NCBI GenBank assembly: GCA_934778205.1
Contig: CAKVOD010000001.1
Span: 126,769-190,768, forward strand
Direction: 5' to 3'
Origin: an uncultured Clostridia bacterium
Lineage (GTDB): Bacteria > Bacillota > Clostridia > Christensenellales > UBA1242
Length of the DNA stretch: 64,000 nt
Positions 34,925-35,985 of the stretch are shown here, piece after piece; within the stretch, counting starts at the first letter, position 1, and each line of letters opens with the position of its first letter. The notes under the pieces are model-generated. The model did not search any database. It saw only the letters and a program-made list of their open reading frames with translations, and was not told where the DNA came from. The translations under genes and the position numbers were made by a program.

Positions 34925-35674
34925 ATGAAACAAAAATTATTAATAGCACAAGACGACGACACTTGCAAGATACTTAGAGATTACTTTGCGACAAATTTTG
35001 ACTATGAGATTGTTGGGGCGACTAGTAACGGAGATGAAGTGATTGACCTCATAGTCGACACGCAACCCGACATTGTCATTCTTGACTTAATTTTGCCGTC
35101 GCGCGATGGGTTTTACATACTAGACTACATACAAACAAAGTTGGTAACGCGCAAACCGAAAGTTTTGGTATTGACGGCACTCACGCAAGATACGTTTATC
35201 AACAAGGCAATCACGTATGGCGCAAGCGACTTTTTAGCAAAACCTTTTGACAGCGAATCTTTGCGCAGACATTTGGTTGACTTGCAGGGCAACGGCGGAG
35301 TTTTGTCGATGGGCAAGTCAAAAGGACGCGAGATTGAGGAGCGCATATCAAGCATATTTCTCACAGTTGGCATTCCTGCGCACATCAAGGGTTACCAATT
35401 TTTGCGCGAGGCAATCAAACTATCAATCAGTCATCCTGAGATTATCAACAGCATTACGAAGGAACTTTATCCTGCTATTGCTGAAAAGTTTGAAACGTCA
35501 CCGAGCAAGGTAGAACGCGCGATTCGACACGCGATTGAGGTGGCGTGGAACCGTGGCAAGATTGAAAACATTAATAATATTTTTGGCATTAAAGTTTATG
35601 ACAACAATGAAAAGCCTACAAACAGCGAATTTATTGCGCTCATATCGGACAAAATGATTATTGACGGGCGCTGA
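34925..35674 (+). CDS. spo0A: Sporulation master response regulator Spo0A
   Basis: Receiver domain (IVILDLILPSRDGF) plus the Spo0A-specific C-terminal domain (VGIPAHIKGYQFLREAI...ITKELYPAIAEKF.TSPSKVERAIRHAIEVAW). Start placed at the ATG at 34925. Confidence 0.95.
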   Translation: MKQKLLIAQDDDTCKILRDYFATNFDYEIVGATSNGDEVIDLIVDTQPDIVILDLILPSRDGFYILDYIQTKLVTRKPKVLVLTALTQDTFINKAITYGASDFLAKPFDSESLRRHLVDLQGNGGVLSMGKSKGREIEERISSIFLTVGIPAHIKGYQFLREAIKLSISHPEIINSITKELYPAIAEKFETSPSKVERAIRHAIEVAWNRGKIENINNIFGIKVYDNNEKPTNSEFIALISDKMIIDGR

Positions 35675-35985
35675 GTGGCAAAGGCCACTGACTGCAGGTA
35701 TTGTTCCTACAAGTAATCAACTTTTTGCGGACGGCAAACGAATATACTTTTTATAAAATTATAATCTCGGTGGGGATAGCCCCGCTGCTGCTGGTTTGGT
35801 TCCTACGAGTAAGTCGCTTTAATGGACGGCAAACAAAAGTTCTTTCTACAAACTTAGTTCTCGGTGTGATAGTGCACTGCTACAAATGCTTTCTCTACTC
35901 GCAATTTATTTTTCGCGGACAATGCGCGAATATACTTTTTATAACTATTAAATCTTATGGATATAGCCCAAAACTATGTATGCAC
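35675..35985 (+). repeat. Family-A array (A2 subtype, ~3.3 tandem units of 94-96 nt) directly abutting the spo0A stop codon
   Basis: TGA at 35672-35674 is followed immediately by H1 GTGGC-AAAG-GCCAC (35675-35688). Unit boundaries fall at ..CTCG|G (35769/35770 and 35863/35864). Confidence 0.85.

Follow-up and report, generated by a model that had tools for sequence, protein, structure and literature searches.

Tandem intergenic repeats with a covarying head hairpin at gene ends in an uncultured Clostridia lineage

The stretch of DNA analysed here (the window, 64,000 nt) comes from an uncultured gut-type lineage of Clostridia, the host of a repeat family that we call family A. One array of these repeats follows spo0A, a gene whose homologues carry the Response_reg and Spo0A_C domains, and the locus is laid out as follows:

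34925..35674, + strand: spo0A, from translation; probable start ATG 34925, protein ending ...DKMIIDGR, TGA 35672-35674
35675..35769, + strand: family A unit 1 (type A1); nhmmer 71.6 bits, E 1.7e-21
35770..35863, + strand: family A unit 2, head GTGGGG-ATAG-CCCCGC; nhmmer 68.6 bits
35864..35959, + strand: family A unit 3, degenerate, head GTGTG-ATAG-TGCAC; nhmmer 44.0 bits
35960..35985, + strand: remnant of a fourth head (GATATAGCCC...), read from the sequence; ragged distal end of the array with no significant profile match
36081..36112, + strand: intrinsic terminator of spo0A, downstream of the array, from a terminator scan and comparison with relatives

The head of unit 1, GTGGC-AAAG-GCCAC, directly follows the spo0A TGA, just where the original prediction had placed the array. 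In unit 3, GGACAAT stands in place of GGACGGC. An array occupies the same site in relatives whose Spo0A is 88% and 84% identical and is absent from relatives with Spo0A identity of 77% or less, though the same genes are present there. The protein ends in GR, SRG or SRA in the array-bearing species, as opposed to EC in one species that has no array. Neighbouring units are near-identical in the arrays of L014 (three units) and L015 (five units), that of L016 has decayed to a single unit, and the first units of L014 and L016 have orthologous bodies with different heads. All three of these relatives have, past the array, a terminator like that of spo0A in the window.

An A1 unit starts at its 5' end with a G+C-rich head hairpin (5-6 bp stem, A-rich tetraloop), which is followed by a conserved unpaired block, YGCTRCAGG plus TACTGTTCCTAC or TTTGGTTGGGTGGC. 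Next come a segment that varies, GGACGGC as the 5' arm of an intrinsic terminator, and the tail TTTCTA...TTCTCG. Head, unpaired block, GGACGGC and tail had all been named in the original prediction and all were seen. Conservation is block-wise and not uniform, the conserved blocks of the segments between heads being CTAC, GGACGGC, TTTCTA and TTCTCG. In the second body type, A2, the end is formed by a long A+T-rich hairpin that resembles a terminator. Units are about 79-98 nt long, their lengths are not multiples of three, and in all arrays they stand in tandem, head to tail. A 109-codon ORF (35701-36030) crosses the spo0A array; because the lengths of the units do not preserve the phase and the remaining frames are closed, it was treated as chance and coding by the units was rejected. 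The GTG codons at head starts have no ribosome-binding site.

Head stems are variable (GCGGGG, GTGGC, GTGCG, GCGGC, GTGAC and others). Among 44 distinct heads, 89% of the cells pair, compared with 60% in shuffles, and two-sided changes occur in 63 head cells compared with 24 in shuffles, a level reached by none of 500 shuffles; slid controls gave at most 0.14, against 0.68 for the true register. G-T and A-C were about equally frequent among the departures from stem pairing in a manual tally of the listed heads, a balance that shows no sign of selection specific to RNA. The head hairpin, with its strong covariation, is the sole supported structure of the family. RNAalifold recovered no conserved structure in the unit beyond the head, so that the one or two additional hairpins predicted for each unit are not conserved, and whole arrays do not fold more stably than shuffles (z -0.4 for the sense and -0.6 for the antisense strand); on these two results we rejected a highly structured RNA. 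Heads can also be separated as modules of ~21 nt, and double heads always join at ...GCTG/G... (the stroke marks the join). MAFFT mis-registers 5-bp against 6-bp heads, whereas nhmmer profiles recover the units.

Searching the window with an nhmmer profile built from 14 seed units yielded 28 intergenic matches, together with two weak intragenic ones (E>0.05) that represent noise. The repeats are real: with A2-type and head-only copies included, the window has 11 arrays, which together comprise ~34 heads and ~19 full units. All 11 arrays are non-coding, bar the final codons of a few genes (P ~2e-8, given a coding fraction of 79.7%). They are not an assembly artefact, because over 11.6 kb, five arrays included, the window is matched at 100% identity by an independent Logan assembly (L003). 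Profile scores drop along four of five arrays, gene-proximal units being the best kept. No family A copy was found in the next 9.4 kb to the right of the window, and no array in the 2.1-kb A+T-rich gap after parB; the survey takes in ~73 kb of this genome plus short contigs from its relatives. A 20-base gapped A1 pattern was found, among 185,579 species genomes, in one Clostridia MAG only, plus three single matches that are probably due to chance, and the head pattern matched two short contigs in JGI metagenomes.

Besides spo0A, five genes of the window carry an array at their 3' end:

7641..7905, + strand: array after the giant ORF (stop 7631-7633); A2 unit, A1 unit, terminal A1 unit
47651..47887, - strand: array after jag; three A2 units, 7 nt past TAA 47895-47897
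51270..51578, - strand: array after dnaN; the head loop TAG 51570-51572 is the stop codon
56339..56550, + strand: array after dnaA; TGA 56340-56342 in the head, two more heads, decayed unit
58812..59043, + strand: array after mnmE (TAG 58807-58809); two A1 units and a half unit

Relative to the last stop-codon base of a co-oriented gene, these six arrays start between -9 and +8 nt (P ~4e-10 as the product of uniform-placement probabilities), and stop placement is true of every gene for which it had been claimed, namely spo0A, dnaA, dnaN, mnmE, the giant ORF and jag. The dnaA TGA does lie within a head, in the 5' arm of the compensated stem GTGAC-AAAA-GTCAC, the dnaN stop is the TAG of the head loop, the mnmE TAG is separated from the head by 2 nt, and the first unit after the giant ORF begins ~8 nt past the stop. 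The jag array also sits at the gene end, but at a distance of 7 nt and not the ~60 nt originally given, with an extra degenerate unit at 47809-47887. In dnaN, the 5' arm of the head (GTGGCA) encodes the final two residues (VA), so that the protein ends in ...PVRIVA here and in ...PVRIIN, at equal length, in an array-less relative; Jag is 3-4 residues shorter than in relatives. Half an element of family B, which is separate from family A and has long inverted arms, lies after the mnmE array.

Placement at stop codons recurs in related genomes. Six more gene ends in related contigs have a head at the stop, one of them 48 nt inside the ORF; with this exception, the head starts between -10 and +9 nt from the stop end at the 12 independent gene ends. 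The stop is inside the head in dnaA, dnaN, L007 and the spo0A genes of L014-L016, and at spo0A and mnmE of the window, as in L010 and L012, stop and array are flush with each other. Contrary to what had been proposed, the stop codon is not a fixed component of the unit: it may precede the head, fall in its 5' arm or its loop, or lie 45 nt inside the unit, and internal units carry CTCG in the corresponding position. Nor is the predicted junction T(A/G)(A/G)-GTGGC general, given the variable head stems and the CTCG at internal junctions.

The other five arrays do not follow a gene of the same orientation:

8345..8423, - strand: single A2 unit; head toward the DUF11 gene (ATG 8469), ~30 nt from its ribosome-binding site
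47048..47190, + strand: A1 unit and partial unit; head just upstream of the promoter region of divergent cca (start 46985)
53136..53377, - strand: double head and decayed units in the dnaN-dnaA intergenic (oriC) region; no adjacent gene
53785..54140, + strand: double head, two A1 units and remnants in the oriC region
54729..54951, - strand: two A1 units and a remnant, antisense to dnaA

The head of the last of these stops one base short of a promoter-like site, TTGACT-17-TATACT (54952-54980), with the dnaA ATG 36 nt off, and the GC-skew minimum is at ~54-56 kb of the window. In a related MAG, two arrays are antisense, at divergent-gene signals or filling an intercistronic gap; the gap filled in L006 extends from a stop codon to 4 nt before a ribosome-binding site. 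In MAG contigs, arrays also adjoin unrelated genes, including rpsG. The rule that arrays lie at the stop of the upstream gene and share its orientation holds for six arrays of the window, but not for the other five or for these two of the related MAG.

A terminator lies past the array at spo0A, dnaA (56607-56634) and jag, where the last hairpin and T-run of the array itself (47652-47677) form a predicted terminator; in array-less relatives the terminator is found 20-60 nt past the stop. Because the arrays sit between the stop codon and the real terminator, they are most likely transcribed as part of the 3' UTR, as was first proposed; judged by terminator positions only, this applies in particular to spo0A, whose conserved terminator (36081-36112) comes after the array. 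The GGACGGC arm is part of an intact terminator only in some terminal units, such as GGACGGC-GCAC-TGCCGTCC-TTTCT at 7874-7899 in the last A1 unit after the giant ORF, a form shared, as GGACGGC-GCAC-TGCCGTC(C)-TTTCT, with 2029-2055 of L007. Internal units are crippled in this respect, the 12-nt spacing being kept and the 3' arm of the terminator destroyed. A terminator of the same GGACGGC type is in native use at mnmG (GGACGGCATTTGCCGT followed by a T-run).

Comparison of strains shows that arrays grow and shrink by recombination between units, as whole periods gained or lost in register, and that the ~21-nt head modules duplicate or vanish at GCTG repeats. Strain L001, which is 98% identical to the window, has one-period deletions and insertions in register and a 22-nt head flanked by CTGCT; its counterpart of the array at 53785-54140 differs by a 22-nt head and about two units. 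Whole units in register also account for the differences seen in L004, L014 and L015. At dnaA, the unit by which the window and L004 differ is placed exactly at the stop, directly 5' of an existing head; the stop is TGA within a GTGAC/GTCAC head in the window and TAG before a GTGCG head in L004, and both proteins end in ...AMLE. Internal heads decay differently in two strains. Divergence between strains is ~7% in the mnmE array and ~13% at neighbouring four-fold sites, small numbers that hint at constraint or homogenisation; between the window and L001, four-fold divergence is heterogeneous along the region (0-18%). Microhomology of the flank to the TTCTCG tail (at least 5/6 matches at 4 of 21 junctions, compared with 3% expected, P ~0.003) is suggestive only, the signal being weaker when the two dnaA alleles are counted once.

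The closest precedent of family A is the MIRU, ahead of REP or BOX. MIRUs are units of 40-100 bp that form direct tandem intergenic arrays with ends overlapping the adjacent ORFs (PMC3184786), insert at start codons (PMC12548453), are co-transcribed with flanking genes, vary in copy number between strains and lack a transposase of their own (PMC3184786, PMC12548453). Family A likewise consists of direct tandem intergenic units of polymorphic copy number, its heads overlap stop codons, and the L006 array reaches from stop codon to ribosome-binding site. The likeness is one of description and probably not of sequence: the host of family A belongs to the Clostridia, not the Actinobacteria, and base composition differs. 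Whereas a MIRU carries a small ORF through which translation is coupled to the downstream gene at -4 spacing, no phase-preserving ORF exists in family A (unit lengths run from 92 to 98 nt, and the loop TAG closes one frame) and most of its arrays are followed by a terminator instead of a gene. The covarying head, the crippled terminator and the antisense occurrences further distinguish it from MIRUs.

The kinship with REP/BIME or BOX elements suggested in the original prediction fits as to kind, with MIRU being nearer. REP/BIME elements, known from Enterobacteria and Pseudomonas, can stabilise mRNA and act as recombination hot spots (PMC3184786). With family A they share a G+C-rich hairpin outside genes, clustering and a frequent location in 3' UTRs. 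However, a REP of ~35 nt consists of the palindrome alone (by definition an imperfect one of about 21-65 nt), while in family A the palindrome makes up 14-16 nt of an 80-97-nt unit; the hallmark GTAG directly 5' of the REP palindrome is not seen in family A, where an antisense GTAG stands ~16 nt away from the hairpin; and BIMEs alternate REP orientation, unlike the head-to-tail arrays described here. No RAYT (Y1 transposase) gene was seen in the ~73 kb or in the short contigs of relatives. BOX elements of Streptococcus pneumoniae are intergenic, transcribed and non-autonomous (PMC3184786). They share with family A a modular organization in Firmicutes and a variable number of internal modules, but the BOX structure, boxA-(boxB)n-boxC, has complementary ends that pair, whereas family A repeats the whole unit with no end-to-end pairing, and the two have no sequence similarity. 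Stop-codon anchoring has, to our knowledge, not been described for BOX. It is a feature of integron attC sites and Vibrio cholerae repeats, which begin at or over the stop of a co-oriented ORF and in which structure is likewise conserved and sequence variable. Each cassette has one such site, a long imperfect hairpin of 57-141 nt, with accessory promoter-less ORFs and an integrase nearby; family A units are tandem with no ORFs between them, adjoin core genes in conserved synteny (dnaA, dnaN, mnmE, spo0A, rpsG) and have no integrase in the region, which rules out an attC identity. The resemblance to Rho-independent terminators (the GGACGGC arm of A1 bodies, and the predicted terminator of hairpin and T-run that ends A2 and some terminal units) is offset by the destroyed internal 3' arms, the head being devoid of a T-run, and the true terminators beyond the arrays.

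Several other identities were rejected. Units lack the terminal inverted repeats of a MITE and no direct repeats flank the arrays. The arrays are not CRISPR, as originally stated, because the 'spacers' are homologous to one another; in addition, the heads vary in sequence, and cas domains were missing both from the window proteins that were scanned and from the Pfam lists for neighbouring loci. Searches of plasmid and phage collections by blastn gave no match and ARAGORN found no tRNA or tmRNA. At the gathering thresholds of Rfam release 15, the only match in the window was the L10 leader at 32619-32779, and a scan of 46900-59400 at E<=1 hit nothing on the units, in agreement with the statement that the family was not recognised. 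Of the earlier observations, the repeats and their stop placement stand, while the jag distance, the extra hairpins, universal co-orientation and the fixed junction do not; of the earlier interpretation, the non-CRISPR nature, the unrecognised sequence, the REP/BOX kind and the 3' UTR location hold, but not the stop codon as part of the unit or an always shared orientation. Family A is a previously undescribed family of a kind of bacterial repeat that is already known, and not a new kind of system.

We consider it probable that family A is a lineage-specific, recombination-driven intergenic repeat, comparable to MIRU, BOX and REP, that resides in 3' UTRs and is pressed against gene ends. The gene-proximal edge of a fluctuating array would be pushed onto the translation or transcription signals of its neighbour, up to the limit set by selection. 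Erasure of the non-essential flank would be irreversible and the array could regrow, so that the head would come to lie flush with, or overlap, the stop codon. In some genes, the stop and the one to three residues before it would then be encoded by the head, which at other sites would abut a promoter or a ribosome-binding site. If the arrays serve the host at all, for example through protection of the 3' end by the head or through back-up termination, that role would be secondary and dispensable, and we infer that family A is mainly self-perpetuating repetitive DNA. Dispensability is supported by the decay in L016, the absence at Spo0A identities of 77% or less, the strain-specific decay of internal heads and the falling profile scores. 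Such a ratchet alone leaves unexplained why it is nearly always the head end, not the tail end, that faces the gene, and why the 2.1-kb gap after parB is empty. Nor did the analysis bring up target-site duplications or a mobilising enzyme by which the family could have reached new loci. The compensated dnaA stem and the better preservation of first heads over internal ones suggest selection on the gene-proximal hairpin, which would fit either a function or an active recognition site.

One alternative that takes up this last point is that the head is the active site of an enzyme specific for single-stranded DNA structures (HUH/RAYT-like, or a tyrosine recombinase), which would insert units or heads beside ORF termini or existing heads, making placement a matter of target choice instead of a ratchet. 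Preservation of head structure despite variable sequence, as in REP, IS200/IS605 ends and attC sites, would agree with this, as would the separable head modules with their constant join, the whole-unit difference directly 5' of a head at the dnaA stop of the window and L004, the different heads on orthologous first spo0A units of L014 and L016, and the good preservation of gene-proximal units. We nevertheless find it unlikely: homologous or slipped recombination between repeats suffices to explain every difference observed between strains, array orientation tracks the neighbouring gene and not the direction of replication (as set by the GC-skew minimum at ~54-56 kb), and in the window and related loci neither target-site duplications nor a consensus flank nor a mobilising enzyme was found, Pfam detecting no transposase or recombinase among 28 window proteins or in the lists for related loci. 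Equally doubtful is a broader version, in which ORF termini are sought out by an element of a novel type, with the head hairpin as its working end, and a structure-specific enzyme, replication or template switching places heads or units right beside stops, ribosome-binding sites and existing heads. Were it true, the element would have rewritten the last codons and supplied the stops of the essential genes dnaA, dnaN and spo0A; its precise loss would therefore be harmful and the host 'addicted' to it.

The two other readings assign the arrays a role. As functional 3' UTR RNA, on the model of REP-like stabilisers or of REPs close to stop codons, the head would protect the mRNA 3' end or modulate translation termination and the unpaired blocks would bind protein or RNA. 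The location of arrays between stop and terminator for six genes, the block-wise conservation of the unit, the compensatory change that retains pairing in the first dnaA head, the persistence of the spo0A array at the same site in three species and the known effects of REP elements on mRNA stability (PMC3184786) are in line with such a role. It is rendered improbable by the five window arrays and two MAG arrays that either run antisense to the neighbouring gene or belong to the oriC region, by the lack of conserved structure or excess folding energy beyond the head, by stem departures in which G-T is no more common than A-C (manual tally), by unit numbers that vary freely down to the decayed array of L016, and by the family being missing from close relatives that have the same genes. 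Alternatively, the arrays might act as DNA in chromosome biology, for example as sites bound by nucleoid or origin proteins, which would explain their concentration at oriC: eight of the 11 are found between 47 and 59 kb, surrounding clusters of DnaA boxes and the GC-skew minimum, three of them between dnaN and dnaA, where they flank DnaA boxes and a tract of A+T-rich repeats, and BIMEs bind IHF and gyrase (PMC3184786). Yet arrays also occur at 7.6 kb, at 35.7 kb and beside unrelated MAG genes including rpsG, copy number in the oriC region varies between strains, and the apparent concentration comes from 73 kb of one genome, all of which makes this reading very improbable. We know of no candidate binding protein.

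These arrays show that small tandem repeats of a Firmicute can abut and even invade the ends of essential genes, replacing last codons and donating stops, a behaviour best known from mycobacterial MIRUs. Should the head hairpin prove to be an active site, there would be a mechanism that recognises ORF boundaries at the level of DNA. For this uncultured lineage, the arrays can serve as variable-number markers in the typing of strains and account for breaks in metagenomic assemblies at these sites, and annotation of its genes calls for caution, since C-termini and 3' UTRs are here partly derived from repeats.

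Family A, the tandem repeat whose units each consist of a G+C-rich hairpin (the head) followed by a body, lies between genes. A profile HMM seeded with 14 units gave 28 intergenic matches in the 64-kb window and just two weak matches inside genes (E>0.05), which are noise. When head-only copies are counted, the window contains ~34 heads and ~19 full units in 11 arrays; the original prediction was of more than 30 intergenic copies. Although 79.7% of the window is coding, all 11 arrays lie outside genes (P about 2e-8) and make up 20% of its non-coding DNA. The array predicted at 35672–35985, at the end of spo0A, is present and consists of three head-to-tail units and a decayed fourth head:

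35675–35769, unit 1, right after the spo0A stop codon
35770–35863, unit 2
35864–35959, unit 3, with the decayed fourth head after it

Profile scores drop along four of five arrays, as at spo0A (71.6, 68.6 and 44.0 bits, in order) and mnmE (78.3, 49.2 and 25.7 bits). The source of the window is an uncultured organism (ENA scaffold ERZ28615229 scaffold_131). Across 11.6 kb that include five arrays, the window matches an independent Logan assembly (L003) at 100% identity, and an ENA scaffold (L002) is identical across 19 kb, which rules out an assembly artefact.

Units are of two types. A1 units (92–98 nt) comprise the head, a 5–6 bp G+C-rich hairpin with the loop ATAG, AAAG, AGAG, AAAC or similar; two bases and CTRCAG(G/A); TAC-TGTTCCTAC; ~15 variable bases; GGACGGC with 12 variable bases; CTTTCTA; and ~13 variable bases ending in TTCTCG. 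A2 units (79 nt, five in the window) have the same head, continue with GCTGCAGG and TTTGGTTGGGTGGC, and close with the A+T-rich 27-nt palindrome GGTACATAGTnAATTnACTATGTACC, often with a T-run behind it; TRF recovers them as a 79-nt tandem array at 47651–47839. The A2-specific block GGTTTGGTTGGGTGG (47700–47716, 47779–47795 and 8394–8410, minus-strand sense) has four G-runs 1–3 bases apart and could, on paper, form a two-tetrad G-quadruplex.

The head is the only supported structure. Among 44 distinct heads, preselected for at most one mismatch each, 89% of cells pair, compared to 60% in shuffles, and 63 cells have changes on both sides, compared to 24 (a value reached by none of 500 shuffles). 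The covariation score falls from 0.68 to 0.14 or less once the 3' partner is slid. A profile-defined list of heads, free of selection for pairing, gives the same stems: GCGGGG/CCCCGC, GTGGC/GCCAC, GTGCG/CGCAC, GCGGC/GCCGC, GTGAC/GTCAC and GCGGG/CCCGC. RNAalifold found no conserved structure other than the head, and the spo0A array has no folding advantage over dinucleotide shuffles, with z -0.4 for one strand and -0.6 for the other. Thus, the 'one or two more hairpins' originally described in each unit are local and unconserved. Family A is a modular non-coding repeat with the head as its one conserved structure. In the GGACGGC block, the unit carries an intrinsic terminator's 5' arm. The intact form, GGACGGC-GCAC-TGCCGTC(C)-TTTCTAT, is found in the last unit of the giant-ORF array (7874–7899) and in an array of a metagenome-assembled genome (MAG; L007, 2029–2055), whereas in internal units the 12-nt GGACGGC–TTTCTA distance is kept and the 3' arm is gone. 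The window contains 21 copies of GGACGGC (2.3 expected), 12 of them in arrays; at mnmG, the native terminator consists of GGACGGCATTTGCCGT and a T-run after it.

The placement of the arrays is highly non-random, and the original observation was largely right:

spo0A array: head directly after TGA, gap 0
dnaA array: TGA within the 5' arm of GTGAC-AAAA-GTCAC
dnaN array: stop codon is the loop TAG of GTGGC-ATAG-GCCAC
mnmE array: TAG, 2 nt, head; canonical protein tail ...CLGK
giant ORF array: starts ~8 nt past the stop codon
jag array: starts 7 nt past the stop codon; degenerate third A2 unit at 47809–47887
54729–54951, minus strand: head ends at the base preceding a TTGACT-17-TATACT promoter-like site and 36 nt short of the dnaA ATG
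47048–47190, plus strand: begins immediately outside the divergent cca promoter region
8345–8423, minus strand: faces a DUF11 gene (true start 8469)
53136–53377, minus strand: dnaN–dnaA intergenic region, among DnaA boxes
53785–54140, plus strand: dnaN–dnaA intergenic region, among DnaA boxes

Placement at the stop codons of co-oriented genes, originally implied for all arrays, holds for six of the 11 (spo0A, dnaA, dnaN, mnmE, giant ORF and jag) and fails for the other five. All six start within 10 nt of the stop codon (joint P about 4e-10 under uniform placement per intergenic region); the gap of ~60 nt previously given for jag overlooked the degenerate third A2 unit. Arrays point their head end, not their tail, at the gene, and the gene-proximal edge is flush with the ORF end or a few codons inside it, and elsewhere with ribosome-binding sites or promoters. 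DnaN ends in ...PVRIVA* in the window and in ...PVRIIN* at equal length in a relative (L022), the last two codons being head sequence, and Jag is 3–4 residues shorter than in relatives. Wherever checked, the real terminator lies past the array, at 36081–36112 for spo0A and 56607–56634 for dnaA, and that of jag is the last A2 hairpin. Family A is thus located mostly between stop codon and terminator, in the expected 3' UTR, and the arrays would be transcribed as such. Arrays are oriented by the neighbouring gene and not by replication direction (cumulative GC-skew minimum at ~54–56 kb).

Searches of 185,579 species, one genome each, with the gapped A1 pattern matched only the MAG 'Clostridia bacterium CM_BacCAK280.121', at four loci; three other single matches were probably due to chance. 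The head pattern matched two short contigs in the JGI metagenomes. Nothing similar was found in plasmid and phage collections and no matching family in Rfam, consistent with the initial failure to recognize the repeat. Stop-flush heads recur at unrelated genes of foreign contigs: directly after TAA and 3 nt after TAG at two genes of L010, 2–3 nt after the TAG of rpsG (tail ...HMRW) in L012, 9 nt after TGA in L013, and with the loop TAG as the stop codon in L007; the ORF of L005 runs on for 15 codons within the unit. In L006, an antisense array exactly spans an intercistronic gap: its A2 hairpin overlaps the upstream gene's TGA, and its other end stops 4 nt short of the next gene's ribosome-binding site. 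Another head in L006 is 1 nt away from a divergent gene's ribosome-binding site.

A search for Spo0A homologues, followed by retrieval of the relatives' contigs, indicates that the spo0A array is old yet dispensable. Relatives with 88% identical Spo0A (L014 and L015) carry three and five units, respectively, at the spo0A stop codon, which is the head loop (GAC TCG CGG GGA TAG; tail ...IIDSRG*). L016 (84%) has one unit and decayed remnants (...SRA*, TAA within the head). Those with 77% identity or less (L018, L020, L021 and L022) have no array there and an ordinary terminator 20–60 nt past the stop codon (e.g. tail ...IIDEC*); a second contig with the 77% identical Spo0A (L019) carries a few heads elsewhere, along with one A2 unit. 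The first units of L014 and L016 have clearly orthologous bodies and different heads, so head turnover is independent of the bodies. Where L014 has one unit, L015 has three adjacent ones that are near-identical. A strain ~98% identical to the window (L001) differs by one-period deletions or insertions with breakpoints in register; its oriC array differs by two units, and a 22-nt head flanked by CTGCT is a further difference; internal heads have decayed differently in the two strains. At the dnaA end, the window reads CTC GAG TGA-C AAAA GTCAC, a 95-nt unit, and CTCG GTGCG ATGG CGCAC, and the 94% identical L004 reads CTC GAG TAG-TGCG ATGG CGCAC, so the two differ by one whole unit, placed exactly at the stop codon. 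The protein ends in ...AMLE* in both, despite different stop codons and first heads. Relative to the common GTGGC/GCCAC stem, both arms of the window's GTGAC/GTCAC have changed, creating TGA and keeping the pairing. Contrary to the original proposal, the stop codon is not part of the unit. Turnover of family A proceeds through recombination between its units and through head modules being gained or lost.

These data suggest how flush edges may have originated. Non-essential flank erased by deletion or conversion would be lost irreversibly, whereas the array could regrow, and therefore its edge would ratchet towards the gene, up to the limit set by selection on the gene; after a change in the first unit, only variants that restore a stop codon at the right place would survive. 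Such a ratchet would explain the equally flush antisense and promoter-side arrays, which a genuine 3' UTR function in stability or termination does not. An enzyme that recognizes the head hairpin and targets ORF ends is another candidate, but no transposase was found among the window proteins scanned and no target duplications surround family A; junction microhomology to the TTCTCG tail (4 of 21 junctions, 3% expected) is a weak signal. Eight of the 11 arrays lie within 47–59 kb, which would fit a DNA-level role near oriC; however, others lie outside that interval, and none was found in the next 9.4 kb, which contain a 2.1-kb non-coding tract after parB.

The origin region itself (50700–51200 and 52700–54990) is unusual. 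Minus-strand dnaN adjoins rpmH, with a DnaA-box cluster between them, an arrangement shared with L022 (Spo0A 61% identical) and therefore older than the repeats. Plus-strand dnaA lies 2.3 kb from dnaN, past more DnaA boxes and an A+T-rich tract (54230–54560) of 33-nt AGTACTTA-type repeats, and is followed by mnmE-mnmG-parAB on the same strand. The near-consensus promoter-like site TTGACT-17-TATACT (54952–54989), which also has a TG upstream, stops 7 nt short of the dnaA ATG, so the mRNA could be leaderless or have a very short leader; alternatively, AAAGGTGG at 54967–54974 may be the ribosome-binding site of a transcript starting upstream in the antisense array. Four perfect parS sites (TGTTTCACGTGAAACA; 63476–63671, 0.01 expected by chance) lie just downstream of parB, and the 2.1-kb tract after them is A+T-rich, with 18-nt tandem repeats at 63878–63953.

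The window also contains a second repeat, family B, an imperfect palindrome ~320–390 nt long that recurs in L005, L007 and L013:

7940–8330
47190–47510
33560–33805, partial
59044–59170, half

Its paired arms (GTCATTTCGACCGAA / TTCGGTCGAAATGAC, GGAGAAATCTCCCGGAAGGG / CCCTTCCGGGAGATTTCTCC, TTGACAGCG.. / ..CACGGTCAA) make it MITE-like; Rfam has no match. It repeatedly adjoins the distal end of family A arrays, and intergenic regions 7641–8423 and 47048–47887 both consist of an A array, B and an A2 array in inverted orientation, the heads pointing outwards. Beyond spo0A, ~64-nt direct repeats (92% identical, GGAAAAGTGTA motif; 36129–36225 and 37679–37742) flank an AAA_14/DUF4143 ATPase gene (36256–37599). 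The gene is missing in L014 and L015, which keep the repeat motif, and present in L016, and so looks like an insertion or deletion between the repeats. The giant ORF (74–7633, >2519 aa, running past the window's left edge) is surface-protein-like, with a hydrophobic segment and basic tail (RTRMKVR) at the C-terminus and no Pfam match in its last 999 aa; a 2059-aa Big_2 protein, also surface-protein-like, is encoded to the right of the window (L023, 18418 onward). The L10 leader (RF00557, 47.9 bits; 32619–32779, minus strand) upstream of rplJ-rplL is an ordinary feature.

In line with the original prediction, family A is not a CRISPR array, nor is it a MITE or an integron attC array. The comparison made there to REP or BOX 3' UTR repeats is apt in kind; it was wrong to place the stop codon in the unit and to imply that all arrays follow co-oriented genes. 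Family A belongs to neither of these families: the unit is more than a palindrome, without alternating orientation or adjacent GTAG (REP/BIME), and has neither A-Bn-C architecture nor end pairing (BOX). Closest in behaviour are the mycobacterial MIRUs, direct tandem units of 40–100 bp that are co-transcribed with their neighbours, overlap adjacent ORFs and vary in copy number among strains (PMC3184786), and have been described inserting at start codons, their internal ORF then being coupled to the gene (PMC12548453). Family A is likewise tandem, polymorphic and ORF-overlapping, but it lacks an in-phase coupling ORF and differs further in its covarying head hairpin and its crippled terminator, in mostly being followed by a terminator instead of a gene, and in belonging to a host of a different phylum. 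Thus, the family is new, the general kind of element is already known, and MIRU-like overlap of ORF ends here reaches essential genes of a spore-forming Firmicute.
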